DNA of 64,000 bases from Candidatus Aminicenantes bacterium (GCA_963702005.1 OY969696.1:704001-768000); one strand, 5' to 3'. Counted from the stretch's first letter, positions 52,150-64,000 are shown. Made by a program: numbers and translations. Notes: a model not told the origin generated them from the letters alone.

Positions 52150-54184
52150 TCAGAAGCTCCGCGCGCAGATCCCGCCGCCCGCGGTCCCGACGTAGATCTT
52201 GCGGGCGGCGCCGTCGACCTGGATCGAGTTCACGCTCTTGACCGGCAGGTCGCCGGAGAGGTCCGTCCAGGTCGCCCCCTTGTCGGCGCTGTGCCAGAGG
52301 CCGTTCCAGTTCCCGACAAAAAGCTCGTTCGGATTGAGCTTGTTGACGGCCAGGCAATCGCCGGAATAGGGCGCGTTGGCGAGCTTGGTCCAGGAGCCGC
52401 CGCCGTCCGTGGAGGCGAAAATGCCTTCCCACCCGGTCGCGGCATAGACCGTGGCGGGAGAGCCGCCGGACACGGCCAGGGCGTCGATCGGGCACCCGGT
52501 CGAGGGCGGGCTCAACGAGGTCCAGTTGGCCCCGCCGTCCGTGCTTTTATGCAGGACCGGCGAGCCGGAGGAGGTCGTGCCGGCGACATAGATCGTCCGG
52601 GTATTGGAGGGGTCGAACGCGGCGGCGCAAGCCTGGCTGTTTTCATCGGTCCGAATCCGGACCTGGGTCCAAGTCAGGCCGCCGTCGGTCGAGATGAAAA
52701 CGCCCATGTAATTTTTGCCGCCGACCACGATGTATCCCGCCGCCAGGACGCGGTTGGGAACGGCCGGGTCGACGACCAGGATCAGCCCCTGGCAGCCGGC
52801 GCCGGGAAGAAGCTGTTGAAAGTTGGCGCCTCCGTCTACAGACCTGTAGACGCGGGGGGTGCTTCAGCCGTAGGTCGAGAGATAAACCCGGTTCGGGTCC
52901 GCGCTGGGGACGGCCAGGTCGGCGATGTTGTCGCTCCCCAGGAAATCGGGGAGCTTCGTCCAGCTCGCGCAGGCGTTCGCGCTCTTGAAAACCCCGACCG
53001 ACGTCGCCGCCGCGTACGCCGTGGCCGGAGCGATCGCCGAGGACGAAGAGCCGGGCATCCGGAACCCCCCGATGTTCGTCGCCAGGATCCCCGCCTGGGA
53101 CGGCAGGAAGGTTTTCCCGGCGCTGGTGCTTTTAAAGACCCCCGCCGTCGCGGAGACGTGAACCGTGCTTCCCGAGATCAAGACCTTCGACGCGAGTCCG
53201 GCGAAGCCGGTCCCGCATTTGGTCCAATCCGTTCCGCCGTTCGTGCTCTTCCAGACTTCCTTGGACCCGCCGCCGTACACGATGCTGGGATGGACCTTGT
53301 TCGAAGGCCAGGGACTCCAGGTAAGCGATATAAGACGGGCTGTTCTGCTTCTTCCAAGTGGTCCCGGAGTTGGCCGATATCGCCACCCCCGCTACCGTGT
53401 TTTGGTAGGACACCAAGATCCGGGAGGGATTCGAGGGGTCGATGGCGACCGTGTAAGCATAGTTGACTATGGTGTGGAGATCGTTCATGAATGCGGGCGT
53501 GACGTTCTTCCAGGCCCCCCCGCCGTTCGTGGAGCGGAAGACGCGGGCGCGATAATTCGAGCCGTCGTAGAAGTACCCGCAGAAGAAAATGGTGGACGGA
53601 TTCTTGGGGGAGATGGCGATATCGCGGCCGTAGGCGTAGCTCGACGTCGCCTCCATCGTCTTATGGCTCCAGGTTTGGCCGCCGTTCGTCGTCATGAAGA
53701 CGGCGAGGCATGTCTTCCAACTGGACGTGTCATAGGTATAACTCCCCGCGACGAAAATGACCTTGGGATTTTGGGGGTTGATGGCGATCCTCCCGGAATA
53801 GCCCTGCCGGTATTGGCCGAACGGAAGCTTCGTGAAGGTCGACCCTTGATCGACCGATTTATAAAGTCCGTCCGAGGCCAGGATATAGATCGTCCGCGGA
53901 TTTTTAGGGTCCAGGACGAAATCGTAAGCGTAATCGCCGAGGATGGACTTGAGGGTCCAGCTCTTGCCGTTGTTGACGGACCGGTACACCAGCCCGCGCT
54001 CGGACACCGCATAAAGCTCGGAGGGCGATTTGAGGTTGCGGGCGATGCCCATGATGTTGCCGCCGGTGGGGCCGAGCTGGGTCCAGACCGCCGCTTGATC
54101 CACAGGGCGGGCGGCGCGCATGCCGGGGCCGCCGATGAGAAGGGCGCCAAGGATTGCCCAGATATAAACGGCCGGTCTTTTCAT
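52150..54184 (-). CDS. Secreted BNR beta-propeller candidate selenoprotein, paralog D (TGA 52864-52866; +1 frameshift at 53300-53301)
   Basis: Reads through TGA in frame as STYG-U-STPRVYRSVDGGANFQQLLPGAGCQG into ORF 52150-52728; deleting one base gives SLAFDKVHPSIVYGG, matching paralog A. Confidence 0.75.
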
Positions 54185-54225
54185 TCTCCCTCCTCCGGAA
54201 AAATCCGCATTTTCCCTTCTCGGCC

Positions 54226-54254
54226 ATTATAGCGGGGGGTGTCCCGGCGGTCAA
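54226..54254 (-). promoter_or_regulatory. Sigma70 promoter of paralog D
   Basis: TTGACC-17 nt-TATAAT. Confidence 0.75.
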
Positions 54255-54323
54255 CAGAGGTTGAGGCTCGGCGTCCGAGCCGCTGGGAGGCGACTGGTCG
54301 TCACCCCGGCGCCGGCCCGCTCC

Positions 54324-56345
54324 CTAAAACGTCCGCTTCCAGATGCCTCCACCTTGGGTCCCGACGTAGAGGGTGTGGTTCGTCGCGTTGAAAACGAGCT
54401 GATTTACGTACGGAACGGGCAGTCCCTGGCTGACGTCGGTCCAGGTCAGGCCCCGGTTCTGGCTGTAAAAAACGTTCTGGTTGTTTCCGACGAACACTTG
54501 GTTGGGATTGTTCTTGTTGACGGCCACGGCCCGGAAACCGTAGCTGTATGTTGTGAAGGTGCACTTGGTCCAGGAGGTCCCGCCGTTCGCACTCCGCCAG
54601 AGCTCACTGTTGGTCCCGACATAGACGATATTCGAGTCCTGGGGATCGACGGCGATCGCCTGGGGCGGGTATTGAATCCCGTTCGTGATCGCGGTCCAGT
54701 TGACCCCCCCATCCGCGCTCCTATACACGAGAGCGCTAGAGTTGGAGGTATATCCGCCGACGTAGAGGATGTTCGCGTCGCCCGGCGCGACCGCCACCAC
54801 GGTCGATTGGCTGCCCTCTTGGGTGCTGATCCGGATGGGCGTCCAGTTCGTCCCCCCGTCCTTGGAGACGACGATTCCCATCGACGTGACGCTCCCTTGT
54901 TTGACTGATCCGGTAATGATAAGTTGGCTGAAGTTCTGGGGATTCGCGTAGAGGCTTCCGTATCGGCACTCGTAGAGATCGTAAATCTGTTGGAACGTCC
55001 GTCCTCCGTCTACAGACCTGTAGACGAATTCGCCCTGCGGTCAGCCGCTGGGCTTGACATAGATGGTATTGGGATTCGTGGGGTGAACGACGATGCTGGC
55101 GACGAGCGTGCTGCCCACGAATGTTCCGCAGGTCGTCCAGGCCGATCCCCCATTGGCCGTCTTAAAGAGGGCATATCCCGTGATCCCGGCGTAGATGGTG
55201 CTCGGCGAAGAAGGCGAGACGCCTAAAGCCGCGATGTTCGAGCCGCGGATGCCGGCGTGGCTGGGATTCCAGGTGGAGCCGCCGTTCTTGCTCAGGAAAA
55301 TCCCAACCTGGCTTGCCAGGTGGACATTGGACCCGGCGGCCAGGATTATGCGGCTCTCTCCATGGATGCCGTCGCTGTAAGCTTTCCAGGTGATCCCGCC
55401 GTCCGTGCTCTTGAGGACGCTGTAGACGTAATCGAGCTCGCCTCCGGCATAAAGGATCTTGGAGTTGGCGGAATCGGCCGTGATGGAGTACACATACGTG
55501 ATCCCTGGAGTCTGTTGGGCCTTCCAGCTTCCGCCGGCGTTCGTCGTCCGGGCGATGCCGTTGTTGTGGGCCACCCAGGCTTTTTTCGGGTCGTGGGCGT
55601 CTACATAGATGGCGTTACAGGCGGGATAGGTTCCGTCGAAAATCGCGGCGCCGCCGACGCTCGTCCAGGTGCTTCCTCCGTTCTTCGAAACGTAGGCGCG
55701 GCCGGTATCGACGCTGTTCTTATAGTCGTAGCCGCATAGATAAATGTAATTGGGGTTGGCCTTGGCAAAAACGACGTCATATCCATAGCCGGAATCGGCC
55801 GAGTTCGGGAACCTCTTGACGGTCCAAGACGCGCCGCCGTTCGTCGTTTTAGCGACGGCGATATCGCTTTTGTAGTTCACGTTGTCATACCGGTATGACC
55901 CGGCGATCATAATGATCTGGGGATTGGCCGGGTGGACGGCGATCCGGCCGTACCAGCCGGTAAATCCGGCCGGGAATGCGCGAACCGTGAAATTTTTGCC
56001 CTTGTCCGTGCTCTTGTGAAGATAGCCGTAGCTGAGGACGTAGATCGTGCTCGGGGTCTTGGGATCGACAGCGAGGTCGTAGATCGCCTGGGAGACGATG
56101 GATTGGCGCGTCCAGCTCGCGCCGCTGTTCGTGGATCTCCAAACCTGACTCGGCCAGCTCGAGCTCGCGGCATAGAGCTCGGCCGCCGACTTGGGATTCC
56201 GGGCCAGGCCGCGGATATCCCCTCCGTAGGGGCCGACCGGGGTCCAGGAACCGGCCCGGTCGGGCCGCTCGATCGGGGCGGAGCCGCGCCCGAAGAGGAA
56301 GACGGCGCACAGGACCGCCAGGATGATGACGACGGCTTTTTTCAT
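54324..56345 (-). CDS. Secreted BNR beta-propeller candidate selenoprotein, paralog C (673 aa, Sec435, TGA 55041-55043)
   Basis: KPSG-U-PQGEFVYRSVDGGRTFQQIYDLYECRYG is open and in frame with ORF 54324-54881; SECIS-like hairpin. Confidence 0.82.
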
Positions 56346-56387
56346 AGGCCCTCCTCCGGGGTTCGAGCTCGTTGCATCCGTGACCGG

Positions 56388-56417
56388 ATTATAGGCAATT
56401 TCCCGCCCGGCGGTCAA
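56388..56417 (-). promoter_or_regulatory. Sigma70 promoter of paralog C
   Basis: TTGACC-18 nt-TATAAT. Confidence 0.75.
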
Positions 56418-56441
56418 TACAAAGGGTTGAAGGGGGGCTGC

Positions 56442-58463
56442 TTAAAACGTCCGCTTCCAGATGCCTCCACCTTGGGTCCCGACGTAGAGGGTGTGGTTCG
56501 TCGCGTTGAAAACGAGCTGGGCTACGTACGGAACGGGCAATCCCTGGCTGACGTCGGTCCAGGTCAGGCCTCGGTTCTGGCTGTAGAAAACGCCCTGGCT
56601 GGACCCGACAAACACCTCGTTGGGGTTGTTGTTGTTGACGGCCACAGCATCGAAATTGTAGGCGTTGGTCGGGAACGTGCATTTCGTCCATGAGGCCCCG
56701 CCGTTCGAACTCCGCCAAACTTCCCAAAAGGTCCCAACATAGACGATGTTCGGATCCTGGGGATCGATGGCGATAGATTGGGGCACGTATTGGATTCCGT
56801 TCGTGACGGAGGTCCAGTCAACCCCTCCGTTCACGCTCTTATAGACAAGCCCGGTATAGGTAGCGCTCTGGCCGCCGACATAGAGGAGGTTAGCGTTGCT
56901 GGGCGCGACCGCCGCGACGTTCGATTGGCTGCCGTCCTGGCTGCAGATTTTGACCGGCGTCCAACTCGACCCCCCGTTCGTCGAGAACACGATTCCCATC
57001 GAGGTTACGCCCCCCTGCTTGACCGAGCCCGTGATCAGGAGGAAGTTGATGTTCTGGGGGTTCGCGTAAAGGTTTCCGTACCGGCATTCGTAGAGATCGT
57101 AAATCTGCTCGAATTTCCGTCCTCCGTCTACAGACCTGTAGACGAATTCGCCCTGGGGTCAGCCGCTGGGCTTGACGTAGATGGTGTTCGGGTTCGAGGG
57201 ATGGACGACCACGCTGGCGACGAGATCGCTGCCGTAGAATTCGGTACAGGGCGTCCAGGCGGAACCCCCGTTGACCGTCTTGAGCAGAGCGTAGCCTTGG
57301 ATTCCGGTGTAAATCGTGTTCGGCGAGGAAGGGGCGATGGCGAAGGCTTTGATATTTGCCGCCCGGATTCCGTTGTGGCCGGGGTTCCAGGTCGTGCCGC
57401 CGTTCTTGCTCAAGAAGATTCCCGCTTGCGTCGCCTGGTGGACCTTGGAGCCGGCGGCCAATATTTGGCGACATTCTCCGTAGAGGCCGGTGCTCGAAGC
57501 CTTCCAGGCATTACCCCCGTCGGTGCTCTTGAGGCTGCTGTAGACCAAATTGTACTTGCCGCCCGCGTAGAGGATATTCGGGTTGGAGGAATCGGCCGCG
57601 ATGGCCGTAACATGCGTGATCTGGGGCGTCTGCTGGGCCTTCCAGCTCCCGCCGGCGTTCGTGGTCCGGGCGATGCCGCTGTCATGGCCCACCCAGGCTT
57701 TTTTCGGGTCGCGGGGATCGACGTGAATGGAGTAGCAGGCAGGGTAGCTGTTGTTGAAGACGGCCGACGAGCCGACGCTCGCCCAGGTGCTCCCGCCGTT
57801 CTTGGAAACGAAGACCCGCGCGGCTGTGACGCTGTTTTTCTGATCATACCCACAGAGATAAATGTAATTGGGGTTGCTTTTGGCGAATACGATGCCGCGG
57901 CCATAACCATAGTCGGTCAGATTGGAAAGTCTTTTGAGCGTCCAGGTCGCGCCGCCGTTCGTCGTCTTGGCGACGGCGATTTCGGAATGCCAATCGGCGG
58001 TGTTGTAATAATAAGACCCGACGACCATGATAATCTTGGGATTAGCCGGGTGGACGGCGATCCGGCCGTTGTAGGACTGGAAATCGTCCGGGAACCGATG
58101 GTTCGAGAAGGTCTTGCCTTTATCCGTGCTCGTGTAGAGATAACTTTCGCTGAGGAGGTAAATCGTGCTCGGGGTCTTGGGGTCGATGGCGAGGTCGTAA
58201 ATCCATTGCATGACGATCGATTGGCGCGTCCAGCTGGCGCCGCTGTTCGTGGATCTCCAAATCTGGCTCGGAGAACTCGAGCTCACGGCGTAGAGTTCGG
58301 CCGCCGACTTGGGATTCCGGGCCAGGCCTTGGATATCCCCTCCGTAGGGGCCGAGCGGGGTCCAGGAACCAGCCCGGTCGGGCCTGTCCGCCGGGCCGGG
58401 GCTGCGCCCGAATAGAAAGACGGCGCACAGGACCGCCAGGATGATGACGACGGCTTTTTTCAT
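56442..58463 (-). CDS. Secreted BNR beta-propeller candidate selenoprotein, paralog B (673 aa, Sec435, TGA 57159-57161)
   Basis: KPSG-U-PQGEFVYRSVDGGRKFEQIYDLYECRYG in frame with ORF 56442-56999; 13 Asp-box repeats; SECIS-like hairpin. Confidence 0.82.
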
Positions 58464-58505
58464 GGGCCCTCCTCCGGGGTTCGAGCTCGTTGCATCCGCG
58501 ACGGG

Positions 58506-58535
58506 ATTATAGGCAATTTCCCGGCCGGCGGTCAA
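58506..58535 (-). promoter_or_regulatory. Sigma70 promoter of paralog B
   Basis: TTGACC-18 nt-TATAAT. Confidence 0.75.
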
Positions 58536-58642
58536 GAAACCGCGGTAAAAAGGCCATCCTCAGAACTTCCTCCACCAGATCCCCGCCCCCTCGGTCGCGG
58601 CAAAAACTCTCCGGCCGGCCGCGGAATCGGCGTCAGCGCCGA

Positions 58643-60679
58643 TTAAAAATCCCTCCGCAGAATGCCGCCCCCCGATGTTCCGACGTAGACCTGGCGGGCG
58701 GCGCCGTCGATCTCTATCGATGTCACGCCCCTGACGGGAAGACCCTCCGAAATGTCCGTCCAGGTTGCTCCTTTGTCGTTGCTGTAGGAAAAGAAGCTCC
58801 AGTTCCCCGCGAATATTTCGTTTGGGTTGGACTCATTGATGGCGATGCAATTGCATCCCCAGGGGCCGTTCTCGAGCTTGGTCCAGGTGTCCCCGCCGTT
58901 CGTGGAGACGAAAATACCCGCCCAGGAGGTTCCCAGATAGATCGTGCCCGAGACGCTCGGATCTACGGCGATGGCCTCGATCCTGGCTGAGGACGAGGGA
59001 GGAGTCAGCTCGGTCCAGCTCGCGCCCCCGTCCGTGCTCTTGTGCAGGGCCGGGGCATAGGAGGATTTATAGCCGGCGACATAGATCGTATTCCTGTTCG
59101 AAGGGTCGAACGCCGCGACTTCCAGGCAGCTGCCCGTATCGTTCCTGATCTTGATTTGTTTCCAATCGGATCCGCCGTCCGTCGACAGGAAAATCCCCAT
59201 TACATATTGACTGCCGCTGACGACATATCCTCCCGCTATGATGTGCTTCGGATCCGCGGGATCGGTCAGGAGGATGAGTCCTTGGCAGCCGGCTCCGGGC
59301 AGAAGTTGCTTAAAGCTTTTGCCTCCGTCTACGGAACTGTAGACGCGGGGGTTGCTTCAGCCGTAGGTCGAGAGGTAGACCCTGTTCGGGTCCGCGTTCG
59401 GAACGGCGAGATGAGCGATGCTGTCGCTTCCCGCGAAATTGCCGAGCTTCGCCCAGCTCCTGAAGCCGTTCTCGGTTCTAAAGATGCCGTAATTGGTGAC
59501 CGCGGCATAGGCTGTGTTTGCGGAGGCGGCGCTCGCCGATGAGCGGGGATATTGGAAATCCGCTATTTCGGCGGCTTGAATTCCCGCGTGGGAGGCTTTA
59601 AAAGAGCGGCCCGCGTTCGTGCTCTTGAAGACGCCCGCCGTGGACGTGACCTGAAGCGTATTCCCCGAGGCAATGATCCTCGATACGGTGCCGCAGAGGA
59701 CGTTCGAGAATGGCGTCCAATGATGTCCGCCGTCCTTGCTTTGATAGATCGTTTTATAGGCTCCTCCGTAGAGGACATTGGGATTGGTTTTGTCGAGGGA
59801 AAGGGACTGGATATTATAAAGGCTCTGAGGATTCGTCTGGTTCTGCCAACTGACCCCGGCGTCGGCCGTAAAGGCCACTCCGCCATAATACGGGACGAAC
59901 AATCTCGCGGCGTTCGAGGGGTCGACGGCGACGGCGTAGGCCTGGCCGTAAAATCCCGAGCCCGCGTTCATGAAGGCGGGAGTGATGTCCTTCCAGGTCC
60001 CGCCCGTATTCGTGGAGCGGTAGATGCGGGCGATGCAGCCCGTGCCGGCCCAATAATAGCCGCAGAAATAGACCGTGGACGGAGCCTGGGCGGGAATGAC
60101 GATGTCGCGCGCGCAGCCCGAATCCGAAGTCGTGTCCATCGTCTTCTGGGTCCAGCTTTTGCCTCCGTTCGTCGATTTGAAGACGGCCAGGCACGATTTG
60201 TTGGCGCTTGAATTGGTGGTATAGCTTCCCGAAACGAAGACGATATTCGGATTTTGGGGGTGGACCGCGATTCGGCCCAGAAAGGCGTATCGATGGCCGC
60301 CGAGCGGGAATTTCGTGAATGTTGTTCCTCTATCGGCGGACTTATAGAACGCTTCCGAGGATAGGACATAGACTGTCCGCGGATTCTTCGGGTCCAGCGC
60401 TATATCGGAAGCATCGATGTCGAGGTGGGACTGGCGTGTCCAACTCCCGCAGCCGTCGGCTGACCGGAAGACTTGCCCCTGCTTGGTTAGGACGTATAGT
60501 TCGCTCGGAGATTTCGGGTGGCGCGCGATGGAGATGATATTTCCGCCGTTCGGCCCGAGTCCGGTCCAGACCGAAGCGGCCTCCGGAGACGACGATGGAG
60601 AGGGCTCCGGTCCGCGAAGGCGGCCGTAGAGCACGGCGGCGCAGAAGACGGCTAAGATGACCCCCATGGCTTTTTTCAT
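58643..60679 (-). CDS. Secreted BNR beta-propeller candidate selenoprotein, paralog A (678 aa, Sec441, TGA 59357-59359)
   Basis: STYG-U-SNPRVYSSVDGGKSFKQLLPGAGCQG in frame with ORF 58643-59200; hairpin CGTCTAC-AGTTCC-GTAGACG. Confidence 0.8.
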
Positions 60680-60780: not shown

Positions 60781-60809
60781 TTGACAAGCCGCGGGGGTTT
60801 CAATAACTT
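60781..60809 (+). promoter_or_regulatory. Divergent sigma70 promoter for dsbD-N/selA/selD
   Basis: TTGACA-17 nt-TAACTT. Confidence 0.55.
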
Positions 60810-60819
60810 AGGTAAAGCC

Positions 60820-61386
60820 ATGAGAACCAAGACAGTCCTATCCACCCTGTTCTTTTTCGCGGTTTTCTGCCTTTTGTCCTCGGCCCTCGCCTCGGCCCAG
60901 CTCGAAGTCCCCAAGGTCGTGACCGCGCGGGCCGTCTTGTCCAAGAGCGCAGTCCACGCCGGTGAGACGGTCAAAATCGCCGTCGTCCTCAAGATCGAGA
61001 AGGGCTGGCACATCAACTCGGATGATCCCGGCGACGAGTTCCTGTTCCCCTCGTCCCTCGCCCTTGACGAGGTCGCCGGCTTCGAGGTCAAGGCTTTGGC
61101 CTTCCCCAAGCCCAAGCAGGCCAAGTTCGAGTACTCCGACTTCGAGCTCCGCGTCTACGAAGACGAGGCCGTCGTGGGGGCGCTCCTCCAGGTCGCGGAG
61201 AGCGTTAAAGCCGGCGCCTACAGCCTGACGGGAGTGTTCAAGTACCAGGCCTGCAACAATACGTCGTGCATTATGCCCCAGGACCTCCGCCTCGAGATCC
61301 CGGTCGAGGTCGTGGCGGCGGGCGTCGAGACCAAGGACGTCGAGCCCGACCTCTTCGCCAAGATCGAATTCAAGGACAAAAGCTGA
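60820..61386 (+). CDS. Secreted stand-alone DsbD N-terminal (Ig-like) domain protein
   Basis: Signal peptide; GWHINS, FPKP, YQACNNTSCIMP (Cx4C) motif typical of DsbD-alpha. Confidence 0.8.
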   Translation: MRTKTVLSTLFFFAVFCLLSSALASAQLEVPKVVTARAVLSKSAVHAGETVKIAVVLKIEKGWHINSDDPGDEFLFPSSLALDEVAGFEVKALAFPKPKQAKFEYSDFELRVYEDEAVVGALLQVAESVKAGAYSLTGVFKYQACNNTSCIMPQDLRLEIPVEVVAAGVETKDVEPDLFAKIEFKDKS

Positions 61387-61432: not shown

Positions 61433-62842
61433 ATGAAAGAATCTCTTTTTCGGCTGATCCCATCTGTGGACGCCCTCCTCAATCATCCGGAGGCGCGCCG
61501 GCTCGCCGAGGCGTACGGGCGGCCCTTGGCCTTGGACGCCGTCCGCGACGAGCTCGAGGCGGTCCGGGCCGAAATCCAAACGGCCGGCGCCGCATCATCC
61601 TTGGCCGAGAAAGACCTTGCCCCGGAGGCCTTGCTCGACCGAGTCCGGGCGCGGCTCGAGCGGAAGCTCGCCCCCTCGCTGGGACGCACGATCAACGCGA
61701 CCGGGATCGTCATCCATACCGGGCTGGGGCGGGCCGTCCTGGCTCCCGAGGCGCGGGAGGCCCTGGCGCGCGTGTCCCAAGGATACTCGCAGCTCGCCGT
61801 GGATCTTGAGACAGGTCAGCGCGGCCATCGCGACGTCCATTACGCCTCCCTTCTCCGCGAGCTGACCGGCGCCGAGGCCGGTTTCGCCGTCAACAACAAC
61901 GCCGCGGCGACCGTCCTCCTTCTCAACACCCTGGCCAAAGGCAAGGAGGTCATCCTCTCGCGCGGCCAGCTTGTCGAGATCGGGGGTTCGTTCCGGATGC
62001 CCGACGTCATGGAGACGTCGGGGGCCGTCCTGCGCGAGGTCGGGACGACCAACAAGACCCATCTCCGCGACTACGAGGCGGCGATCTCGGACCGGACCGG
62101 CATCCTCCTTCGCGTCCACCACTCGAACTACCGGATCATGGGCTTCGCCGAGGAGCCGGGGATCGAGGAGCTGGTCGAGCTCGGCCGCAAGCACGGCCTC
62201 CCCGTCGTCGACGATATCGGAAGCGGGGCGCTGGTTGACCTCAAAGATTACGACCTCGAGACCGAGCCACTCGTCCAGCGGAGCGTCCGGGCCGGCGCCG
62301 ACGCCGTCTGCTTCTCGGGCGACAAGCTCATCGGCGGGCCCCAGTCGGGGATCATCGTCGGCAGGGCCAAGGTCGTCGGGCGCGTCAAGAAAAACCCGCT
62401 GGCCCGCGCTTTCCGGATCGGGAAGCTGACCGCGGCCGCCCTCGAAGCGACCCTCAAGCTCTTCCTGGACCCGGACCGGCTGAGGGACCGGCATCCCGTC
62501 TACCGGATGCTGGGGCTGGACGCGAAGGAGATCGAACGGCGGGCGCGCGCCGCGTCGGATACGCTGGCGCTCGGCCTGGCCGGGCGGGCCCGCGTTTCGG
62601 TCGTAGAGGACCGGTCCCAGGTCGGAAGCGGCTCGGTCCCGGTTGAGACCCTCCCGACCTTCGTCCTCAAAATCGAATCCGCGTCTCTTCCGGCCGAGGA
62701 GCTGGCCCGCCGGCTGCGGCGCGGCGCCCCGCCCGTCTTCGGCCGCGTCCACAAGGACGCGCTCCTTCTCGACTTTCGGACCGTCTTCCCCGAAGAGGAC
62801 GGCATCGTCATCGACGCCGTCCGGGCGGCCGTCGAACCTTAA
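61433..62842 (+). CDS. selA: L-seryl-tRNA(Sec) selenium transferase
   Basis: INATG.VIHT.LGRA, VNNNAAA, SRGQLVEIGGSFRMP, EVGTTNKT, DIGSG, FSGDKLIGGPQ. Confidence 0.97.
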   Translation: MKESLFRLIPSVDALLNHPEARRLAEAYGRPLALDAVRDELEAVRAEIQTAGAASSLAEKDLAPEALLDRVRARLERKLAPSLGRTINATGIVIHTGLGRAVLAPEAREALARVSQGYSQLAVDLETGQRGHRDVHYASLLRELTGAEAGFAVNNNAAATVLLLNTLAKGKEVILSRGQLVEIGGSFRMPDVMETSGAVLREVGTTNKTHLRDYEAAISDRTGILLRVHHSNYRIMGFAEEPGIEELVELGRKHGLPVVDDIGSGALVDLKDYDLETEPLVQRSVRAGADAVCFSGDKLIGGPQSGIIVGRAKVVGRVKKNPLARAFRIGKLTAAALEATLKLFLDPDRLRDRHPVYRMLGLDAKEIERRARAASDTLALGLAGRARVSVVEDRSQVGSGSVPVETLPTFVLKIESASLPAEELARRLRRGAPPVFGRVHKDALLLDFRTVFPEEDGIVIDAVRAAVEP

Positions 62843-62857
62843 GGGAGAGAACCGGCC

Positions 62858-64000
62858 ATGGTCGACCTCGAAAAGCGCCGCCGGATCATGGGGCGCTCCA
62901 TCAAGCTCGGGCACTGCATCTGCAACCCCAAGGACCCCTGTCCCTGCGACCTGTTCAAGCGGAAGAACGTCTGCCTCTGCGCGGGCGAGCGCGAAGAGGA
63001 GGCGGCCGAGGACGTCGCCCTGACCAAGCTCGTCGAGAACGCGGGCTGCGCCTCCAAGGTCTCCCAGGAATTTCTCAAACAGGCCCTCGAGGGGCTGCCC
63101 GCCGTCTTCGACCCGCGGGTGCTCGTCAGCTCCTCGACTTGCGACGACGCCGGGATCTTCAAGCTCAACAATACGACCGCGCTCGTCCAGACGGTCGACG
63201 TCTTCTCGCCCTGCGTCGACGACCCCTACGTCTTCGGCCAGATCGCCGCGGCCAACTCCGTGAGCGACGTCTATGCCATGGGCGGAAAACCCCTGACGGC
63301 CCTGTCCATTATCGGATTCCCCTCGGACCGGCTCTCGCCCCGGATCATGAACAAGATGCTCCAGGGCGGAATCGACAAGCTCGGCGAGGCCGGGGTCCCC
63401 GTCCTAGGCGGCCACAGCATCAAGGACGCCGAAGTCAAATTTGGGTTCGCCGTCACCGGGGTCGTCCGGCCCGATCGCATCCTGACCAACGACAAGGCCC
63501 GGCCCGGGAACGTCCTTGTCCTGACCAAGCCGATCGGGACGGGGCTGGCCTGCTTCGCCCAACAGCTCGGGAAGGCGGACGCGGCGCTCCTCGAGGCGAC
63601 CGCCCGCTCCATGACCGAGCTCAACGGCCCCGCCGCCGAGGAGGCCGTCAGAGCCGGCGTGCGGGCCGCGACCGACGTGACCGGATTCGGTCTCCTCGGC
63701 CACTTGGCCGAGATGGCTGTCCAGAGCCGGGTCACGGCCGAAATCTGGGCCGAGGAAGTGCCCCTGTTCAAGGGCGTCCTCGACCTCGCCCGCAAGGGGG
63801 TCGTCTCGGGCGCCGTCGAGCGGAACCGGGAATACGCGATGCGCTTCGTGACCAAGGCCCCGGACGTCGGCGAAGAGTGGGAGGCGGTCCTCCTCGATCC
63901 CCAGACCTCGGGCGGTCTTCTTCTTGCCGTTTCCCGGGCGCGCGCGGCCGGGCTCCTCAAGAGGCTCGCGGCGCGGGGGATCGCGTCGGCGCGGATCATC
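62858..64000 (+). CDS. selD: Selenide, water dikinase with Cys-rich N-terminal extension (runs off the window end; absent from the ORF track)
   Basis: Read manually: LTKLVENAGCASKV, DDAG, QTVDVF, FGQIAAANSVSDVYAMGG, GGHSI, LTKPIGTG, TDVTGFGLLGH, DPQTSGGLL. Confidence 0.95.
   Translation, partial: MVDLEKRRRIMGRSIKLGHCICNPKDPCPCDLFKRKNVCLCAGEREEEAAEDVALTKLVENAGCASKVSQEFLKQALEGLPAVFDPRVLVSSSTCDDAGIFKLNNTTALVQTVDVFSPCVDDPYVFGQIAAANSVSDVYAMGGKPLTALSIIGFPSDRLSPRIMNKMLQGGIDKLGEAGVPVLGGHSIKDAEVKFGFAVTGVVRPDRILTNDKARPGNVLVLTKPIGTGLACFAQQLGKADAALLEATARSMTELNGPAAEEAVRAGVRAATDVTGFGLLGHLAEMAVQSRVTAEIWAEEVPLFKGVLDLARKGVVSGAVERNREYAMRFVTKAPDVGEEWEAVLLDPQTSGGLLLAVSRARAAGLLKRLAARGIASARII

Follow-up and report, generated by a model that had tools for sequence, protein, structure and literature searches.

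The window analysed here, a stretch of 64,000 nucleotides (nt) from a Candidatus Aminicenantes bacterium (GCA_963702005.1 OY969696.1:704001-768000), is part of one 4.31 Mb contig. Its minus strand carries four paralogous genes, A, B, C and D, that encode predicted exported beta-propeller proteins. The genes are arranged head to tail (52150-60679), each contains exactly one in-frame TGA, and each of the four UGA codons is followed by a short RNA hairpin. This work examines that hairpin as a candidate selenocysteine insertion sequence (SECIS), which would direct the reading of the UGA as selenocysteine (Sec or U). The genes, their in-frame UGA codons and their hairpins are listed below. Loop positions are counted with the U of the UGA as +1, and folding energies are minimum free energies (MFE).

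58643..60679, minus strand: paralog A, 678 amino acids (aa), Sec as residue 441, open reading frame (ORF) read with TGA as U; a signal peptide, then a GH74-like tandem Asp-box beta-propeller
59357..59359, minus strand: in-frame UGA of paralog A, context STYG-U-SNPRVYSSVDGG
59326..59345, minus strand: hairpin A, CGUCUAC-AGUUCC-GUAGACG, loop from +22, core MFE -8.7 kcal/mol
56442..58463, minus strand: paralog B, 673 aa, Sec as residue 435, ORF read with TGA as U
57159..57161, minus strand: in-frame UGA of paralog B, context KPSG-U-PQGEFVYRSVDGG
57123..57146, minus strand: hairpin B, core of 7 base pairs (bp) CGUCUAC/GUAGACG, 10 bp when extended, loop AGGUCU from +25, MFE -11.9 kcal/mol for the 24-nt hairpin
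54324..56345, minus strand: paralog C, 673 aa, Sec as residue 435, ORF read with TGA as U
55041..55043, minus strand: in-frame UGA of paralog C
55005..55028, minus strand: hairpin C, identical in sequence to hairpin B
52150..54184, minus strand: paralog D, of the subtype of A, frame broken by a 1-nt frameshift near 53300-53320, ending in a TGA stop
52864..52866, minus strand: in-frame UGA of paralog D, context STYG-U-STPRVYRSVDGG
52833..52852, minus strand: hairpin D, CGUCUAC-AGGUCU-GUAGACG, loop from +22, core MFE -9.6 kcal/mol

When TGA is read as U, paralogs A, B and C each yield one continuous protein with an N-terminal signal peptide. The Asp-box (BNR) propeller assignment implies repeated SxDxGxxW boxes, and all four genes match the Asp-box/BNR and Sortilin-Vps10 families of Pfam and model NF045728 of NCBIfam; for A, the Sortilin-Vps10 match has a value of 2e-37 and is accompanied by BNR and NF045728. 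B and C are 74% identical at the protein level, while D belongs to the subtype of A and thus differs from B and C, as a preliminary description of this DNA had stated. The frame of D changes once (minus strand, 53290-53330), between ...SLAFEQGPS and ...PSNKVHPSIVYGG, which is either a one-base assembly error or the mark of a recent pseudogene.

The hairpins share a common nucleotide sequence. The 23-mer GTCTACAGGTCTGTAGACGGAGG is present exactly at 52829-52851, 55003-55025 and 57121-57143 (minus strand) and with two mismatches at 59322-59344 (minus strand, paralog A), giving four matches in the window where none is expected from 100 dinucleotide shuffles. It starts 12 nt after the UGA in A and D and 15 nt after it in B and C. 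The preliminary description had proposed a SECIS-like hairpin after all four UGAs, with an identical 23-mer 12-15 nt downstream in B, C and D, a 7-bp stem under the loop AGUUCC in A, and loops starting at +22 (A, D) or +25 (B, C). These proposals were borne out: the 23-mer has three exact copies (0 expected in shuffles), the loop positions are as described, and RNAfold returns the stem CGUCUAC/GUAGACG in A, B, C and D, extended to 10 bp in B and C. An extra A-U pair is closed within the AGGUCU loop, which becomes a GGUC tetraloop, and A keeps the hexaloop AGUUCC. The MFE of the 20-nt core is -8.7 kcal/mol for A and -9.6 kcal/mol for B, C and D.

Stem and loop are spelled by the codons for Val-Tyr-Arg/Ser-Ser-Val-Asp(-Gly) of the Asp-box that follows the Sec loop, such that the protein pattern V/I-Y/F-R/S-S-V/E-D-G is written as GUC UAC AGG UCU GUA GAC G. 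The suggestion that Asp-box codons encode the putative SECIS is in line with this. Three of these codons had been called uncommon, and they are: in 1,333 long open frames of the genome, AGG accounts for 8.5% of the codons for Arg, TCT for 6.2% of those for Ser and GTA for 9.4% of those for Val.

The hairpin had been described for four genes. This scope stands for the window and proved too narrow for the genome, in which the family has at least 14 such genes. A tblastn search with the C-terminal halves of A and B located about 30 paralogous loci, 14 of which combine UGA and hairpin, with a single TGA at a common alignment position and usually the context G-G-UGA-G. In all 14, the frame stays open for 229-405 further codons past the UGA. 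TGA is also the terminal stop in six of the 14, and therefore there is no genome-wide reassignment of TGA. The mutual protein identity of the UGA paralogs is just 30-45%.

Within the host genome, the hairpin is strictly coupled to the in-frame UGA. The exact palindrome GTCTAC-N6-GTAGAC has 10 copies genome-wide, and 10/10 sit 12-15 nt after an in-frame TGA. Paralogs with Cys, Ser, Gly, Leu or another residue at the Sec position, including one with Cys, lack the hairpin. As a control, 277 Asp-box-like peptides were collected from the six-frame translation of the genome, of which 16 have a TGA at most nine codons upstream and 261 have none. All six stem pairs can form in 14 of the 16, and these 14 are the paralogs themselves (the other two are spurious frames), versus 3/261 without TGA. 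Similarly, among boxes with Arg-Ser, the codons AGG-TCT are used in 12/13 after a TGA versus 2/93 others. The earlier observation that other Asp-boxes do not show the hairpin, made on those then read, thus extends to the genome.

Three paralogs without Sec are recorded here for their own features. The closest non-Sec paralog of A (L038, genome 4061292-4062179) has Gly at the Sec position and an open frame of just 325 aa. In L041 (genome 3044113-3044170), a UGA-free Asp-box is covered by another kind of hairpin, with a stem of 9 bp (CCCUCCGUU/AACGGAGGG) and a loop of 12 nt, which may be due to chance. L046 (genome ~1977860-1977900) is a frameshifted propeller paralog and represents the third apparent one-base frameshift in the assembly.

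Protein-level searches in six frames, independent of the DNA motif, covered 40 relatives as well as 400 genomes from the phylum and 300 from the class. Internal TGA codons were found at 26 places across nine genomes, and 24 of the 26 combine UGA and hairpin: 14 in the own genome, five in G001 (same genus), one each in G040, G479, G607 and G511 (same order) and one in G091 (another family of the phylum). Two loci were set aside as frameshift debris without a UGA beside an Asp-box, namely L179 of G016 (two TGA) and own-genome position 1977866 (one TGA). As the best six candidates per genome were scored, the phylum-wide search, which gave one further UGA homolog in 400 other genomes, says little on distribution. 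The hairpin is missing from the UGA-free homologs of G002 (same genus, with Ser in place of Sec) and of G003 and G011 (same order). Loss of the hairpin in Cys-containing homologs had been proposed as a check with the preliminary description; absence of the hairpin together with the UGA is seen in the own-genome Cys paralog, in the same-genus Ser ortholog and in two genomes of the same order.

The 24 protein-ascertained elements also reveal covariation, the other comparative check that had been proposed. Two stem pairs compensate. At the outer pair, 17 elements have G-C and seven have A-U, none with a mismatch; the first base of the Val/Ile codon covaries here with the third base of the Asp codon, where the change is synonymous. 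At the inner pair, 22 elements have A-U and two have U-A, and the U-A form changes Tyr to Phe and Val to Glu jointly. Directly after the stem, two Gly codons vary freely among GGA, GGC, GGT and GGG. The loop is AGGUCU in 21/24 elements and AGUUCC, AGUUCU or AGGUCC in the other three. Between paralogs of just 30-45% protein identity, the nucleotide sequence of the hairpin is conserved and shows compensatory changes.

Further members were sought with DNA patterns. In a genome collection, an exact 19-mer was found at 13 loci, eight of which have an in-frame TGA (seven Candidatus Aminicenantes records and one Zixibacteria); of the five without TGA, L055 and L059 are true Asp-boxes and three are not recognisably Asp-boxes. 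The Zixibacteria record (L050, titled Candidatus Zixiibacteriota) holds a propeller gene with the same UGA and an identical hairpin under a different phylum label, which suggests either horizontal spread of the propeller family or a mis-binned contig. A metagenome collection was scanned with a pattern in which both middle stem bases and two loop bases were degenerate, giving 103 loci and 82 unique contexts. A TGA lies 15-21 nt upstream in 53 contexts; in these, the middle bases are complementary in 53/53, the outer position is paired in 52/53 and the loop is AGGUCU in 53/53. In the 29 contexts without such a TGA, the middle bases are complementary in 16/29 and the loops are mixed (Fisher p = 1.5e-7 versus those with TGA, a value that overstates the case because kin are not independent). 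When 85 distinct elements are aligned together, pairing is found in 98.8% of cells, versus 17-61% when the partner column is slid by one to three positions, and two stem pairs are changed on both sides; invariance at 4/7 pairs is uninformative, because the search pattern fixed these in most rows. The loop starts at +22 in 52 elements, at +25 in 30 and at +28 in three (18, 21 and 24 nt after the UGA), and the core MFE has a median of -9.6 and a weakest value of -5.1 kcal/mol.

The hairpin was compared with the bacterial SECIS (bSECIS) consensus. In PMC13188914, which draws on the bSECISearch model of Zhang and Gladyshev, this consensus comprises a loop of 3-9 nt, a stem of 4-16 bp, a UGA-loop distance of 16-37 nt and an MFE of at most -7.5 kcal/mol, with a G in the first two loop positions that is mostly followed by G or U. 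The elements described here agree with it in each of these respects. A coding-region hairpin directly follows the UGA in 4/4 window genes and 14/14 genome paralogs, with a stem of 7-10 bp, a loop of 4-6 nt and an energy of -8.7 to -11.9 kcal/mol. The UGA-loop spacing is 18-24 nt (18 or 21 nt in A-D), and G followed by G or U stands at the loop start in 24/24 protein-ascertained elements. They differ from the consensus in that the propeller stem is near-invariant family-wide, being dictated by, and dictating, the Asp-box protein repeat.

From these comparisons we judge the hairpin to be a bacterial SECIS, with a probability of roughly 0.88. Those of the checks proposed with the preliminary description that were run all favour this reading. 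The hairpin, 12-15 nt downstream, would still be folded when a ribosome arrives at the in-frame UGA. It would be bound by the C-terminal part of a SelB that carries Sec-tRNA(Sec), and the UGA would thereby be read as selenocysteine instead of as a stop. SelB binding and actual Sec insertion are steps that we infer. As the hairpin is built from Asp-box codons, RNA structure and protein motif constrain one another. The element would thus be an orthodox SelB-type recoding element, located in what appears to be a selenoprotein family that we did not find in print.

The genes needed for such recoding adjoin the four propeller genes. They are listed here together with the gene that separates them from paralog A.

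60781..61386, plus strand: exported DsbD N-terminal-domain protein, 201 aa, between A and selA and divergent from A; Pfam PF11412 3.9e-10, 40.2 bits versus a cut-off of 25
61433..62842, plus strand: selA, L-seryl-tRNA(Sec) selenium transferase; Pfam SelA 9.9e-143, TIGR00474 9.7e-169
62858..64000, plus strand: selD, selenide, water dikinase; TIGR00476 5.6e-109; runs off the window end
genome 768099-769995: selB, just beyond the window, after selD
genome 770011-770106: tRNA-SeC, anticodon TCA, just beyond the window, after selB

selA, selD, selB and tRNA-SeC are all present, with selB frameshifted in the assembly. By eye, selD (62858-63999) has Cys, not Sec, at what we take to be the catalytic position of the N-terminal loop. 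Among relatives with UGA propellers, SelB exceeds the curated cut-off in 4/4 that were checked (G001, G040, G479 and G091), starting at model position 1-2 and without stops. In G479, the SelB match and the propeller gene share a contig and are about 6 kb apart. In G002, which has Ser at the Sec position and a genome that is 83% complete, no SelB match exceeded the cut-off.

A number of observations speak against the SECIS assignment. Folding energies lend it little support: segments of 60-64 nt fold no better than shuffles, with z-scores of -1.38, -0.77, -0.29 and -2.88 that are unconvincing, so the case rests on conservation and comparative evidence and not on thermodynamics. No Rfam family reaches its gathering score in the window, and none appears at E <= 10 in 52700-59500. 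The likeness to the E. coli fdhF element, put forward in the preliminary description, holds in part. The loop letters AGGUCU, which we take to be the fdhF apical loop sequence, recur in 21/24 protein-ascertained members. According to PMC8659212, however, the E. coli SECIS has conserved G23 and U24 in the apical loop, U17 and G23 serve as SelB-binding sites, and the bulged U17 is called essential. The propeller elements have no bulged U17, as had been suspected, and form a perfect helix of 7-10 bp; according to RNAfold, the stems are perfect in all four of A-D. The loop G-U is placed at +24/+25 (A, D), +27/+28 (B, C) or +30/+31 (elsewhere) and not at +23/+24, which puts it one or four nt further from the UGA in the window genes and puts the loop 1-7 nt further across the propeller family.

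The coupling to UGA also has exceptions in a few unrelated contigs. The occurrence of the same hairpin and codons without UGA had been named as an outcome that would refute the assignment. It is rare, and it does occur: full hairpins were seen on three true Asp-boxes that lack a UGA, one from the genome collection (L059) and two from the metagenome collection (L161 and L166). L055, an Asp-box without UGA, retains 5/6 core pairs, and the metagenome collection also has complementary stems of the FRSED type without UGA. By a rough, uncomputed estimate, the UGA-free full hairpins are about as many as chance codon choice would give among very many YRSVDGG-type boxes. In the host genome itself, L038 retains AGG-TCT (genome 4062020) without UGA, the stem being broken (3/6 pairs); this locus may be a former Sec gene. 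Finally, selB is split in the assembly, with SelB model positions 1-32 in a different frame from 30-351. The break lies at genome 768099-768250 in a GAAGAAGAAG run (L001, L008), the P-loop part being in the other frame. If this frameshift is real, the strain could not insert Sec. The shared frameshifting of selB, paralog D and one non-Sec paralog points to assembly indel errors, which we consider the likely, though unproven, cause of all three.

These frameshifts, together with the 74% identity of B and C that makes hairpin sharing trivial there, are what could be said for the UGAs being true stops in split genes or pseudogenes, with the palindrome as what is left of a recent duplication or of gene conversion; the family does include some decay or sequencing error. 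Yet the homologous frame remains open past the UGA in 14/14 genes, and the UGA is kept at the same position, with the hairpin, in six further genomes, the most distant of which is from another family of the phylum, and in 53 contexts from metagenomes. Across the divergent paralogs, moreover, the adjacent Gly codons vary and the stem codons are fixed, changing just in compensating pairs, which makes this the least probable of the alternatives. A different reading accepts that the UGA is passed and has Gly, Trp or Cys inserted there through near-cognate or suppressor decoding, the hairpin being a generic stimulator of read-through. The usual G-G-UGA-G context and the Gly or other small residue, not Cys, that is aligned in many non-Sec homologs would suit it. 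It is nevertheless very improbable, considering that a full sel gene set with tRNA-SeC adjoins the genes, that SelB co-occurs in the checked relatives, that Cys homologs exist, that loop, stem and spacing match the SelB-dependent consensus, and that TGA terminates six of the 14 genes.

The hairpin might also serve another role in RNA or DNA, as a pause or attenuation site, a regulator binding site or a recombination hot spot that homogenises the paralogs. The stem sequence is unusually uniform, since 3/7 pairs are invariant even among the 24 protein-ascertained elements, which goes beyond the demand of base pairing; if stem bases are read by SelB, such conservation would be no less expected. 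The element is found nowhere in the genome but 12-18 nt after an in-frame UGA and is lost wherever the UGA is absent (own-genome paralogs and the homologs of relatives), and we regard such a role as still less probable than near-cognate or suppressor decoding, though not as remote as the reading of the UGAs as stops.

On the bacterial SECIS reading, the proteins themselves would be an unusual site for Sec. A profile of 28 homologs was compared with solved structures and matched GH74 xyloglucanases best (E ~1e-43). An AlphaFold2 model of B is all-beta, with a predicted local distance difference test (pLDDT) score of 91.2 and a predicted template modelling (pTM) score of 0.89. A Foldseek search with this model gave top 24 matches that are all GH74, at template modelling (TM) scores of 0.61-0.68 and 15-18% identity. 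The proteins resemble GH74 xyloglucanases in length and in their two-propeller (tandem seven-bladed) build, and differ from them in the low identity of just 15-18%. By these models, the exported proteins are tandem beta-propellers whose fold is GH74-like. GH74 enzymes have two catalytic Asp in the cleft between their domains; the loops that correspond to what we take to be the GH74 catalytic motifs are apparently without Asp, which is offered as a lead only.

In the model of B, U435 is situated in a loop between strands 428-432 and 439-444, and the block 431-440 has the lowest pLDDT of the C-terminal propeller. Sec is thus modelled in an exposed loop that joins strands two and three of a single blade of that propeller. 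In many Sec paralogs, a Cys of the motif Y-R-C precedes Sec by about 22 residues, and in the A/D and B/C subtypes a Cys lies 20-27 residues downstream. From the blade topology, the nearby Cys would lie on the same propeller face as the Sec loop. Cys occupies the Sec column in 3/25 aligned database homologs (P0007, P0009 and P0013), of which P0013 is 53% identical to a Sec paralog.

Two orthodox exported selenoproteins are also predicted in the genome, each consisting of a thioredoxin-like UGSC domain followed by TPR repeats:

L186, 150-1859, plus strand (genome 1013349-1015058): predicted UGSC selenoprotein
L187, 170-1693, minus strand (genome 2162569-2164092): predicted UGSC selenoprotein

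Their hairpins have the stem CUGCUG/CAGCAG and the loop GUC or GGU, with the 18-nt spacing from the UGA that is also seen in the propellers. A search of the genome for an FdhA-type selenoprotein was negative, the best match reaching 59 bits versus a cut-off of 814, without an internal stop; this bears on what maintains the Sec machinery. Wider scans were of limited use. A genome scan for TGA followed by a GGT-loop hairpin gave 38 hits, 12 of them propeller paralogs and the rest apparent out-of-frame noise. When TGA-bridged frames were sought by coding potential, 581 were obtained, too many for use and most of them neighbouring genes that share a frame; a bSECIS filter reduced these to 46, namely 12 propellers, the two thioredoxin-like UGSC proteins and, by eye, noise.

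Our best guess, from sequence features, is that Sec and the nearby loop Cys may form an extracytoplasmic selenol-based redox or metal-binding site. The guess rests on the neighbouring Cys, the DsbD_N neighbour and the DsbD-gamma-like selenoproteins of the genome, and on nothing else. The DsbD_N neighbour hints at a link of the sel cluster to extracytoplasmic thiol/selenol redox. A broader and distinctly tentative scenario, which we hold to be possible but would not favour, is that the Sec machinery is mainly spent on this one expanded family of exported GH74-like propellers, with 14 copies, four of them joined to the DsbD_N-selA-selD-selB-tRNA(Sec) cluster. Sec and the Cys of the top-face loops would then make up an extracytoplasmic selenol site, for redox or for metal or metalloid binding, which is kept reduced by the exported DsbD-alpha-like protein and the two DsbD-gamma-like UGSC selenoproteins. 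The SECIS would act as a portable module: being written in an Asp-box that every blade needs, it would be carried along by duplication, which would explain the family expansion.

Published catalogues were compared with the family. Table 1 of PMC13188914 (2026) holds 119 prokaryotic selenoprotein families and subfamilies; it contains no GH74 selenoprotein and no BNR, Asp-box, Sortilin-Vps10 or beta-propeller family. According to the same source, known bacterial selenoproteins are almost all thiol-oxidoreductase-like. The propellers resemble the selenoproteins catalogued there in having one Sec per protein, Cys homologs and a SECIS after the UGA; they differ from this set in a fold that is not thioredoxin-like, in the absence of a UxxC/CxxU motif and in an unusually high number of copies per genome (14). 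NCBIfam has no selenoprotein model for the proteins described here. The main texts of the deep-Sep and BSepDB papers do not mention BNR, sortilin or photosystem-factor-like proteins, the BSepDB family table being outside this comparison. A full-text search for literature linking selenocysteine or selenoproteins with the BNR repeat, Asp-box, GH74 or Aminicenantes gave nothing relevant among the papers listed.

Gene callers divide each of the UGA propeller genes into two. For the C-terminal half of B, the closest full-length homolog found in the database is just 43% identical, so no near-identical full-length entry was found for the Sec forms, and, if the assignment holds, 14 large exported proteins per genome would be misread. 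Sec in a surface loop of a tandem beta-propeller that has many copies per genome would add to the known uses of selenium. As a putative selenoprotein family, the propellers are notable for their copy number, their non-redox fold and an RNA signal that overlaps a protein repeat motif. One nucleotide stretch carries two codes, an RNA hairpin and a structural protein motif, such that compensatory changes can alter two amino acids jointly. A simple search pattern derived from the hairpin returned 53 further distinct members in metagenomes.

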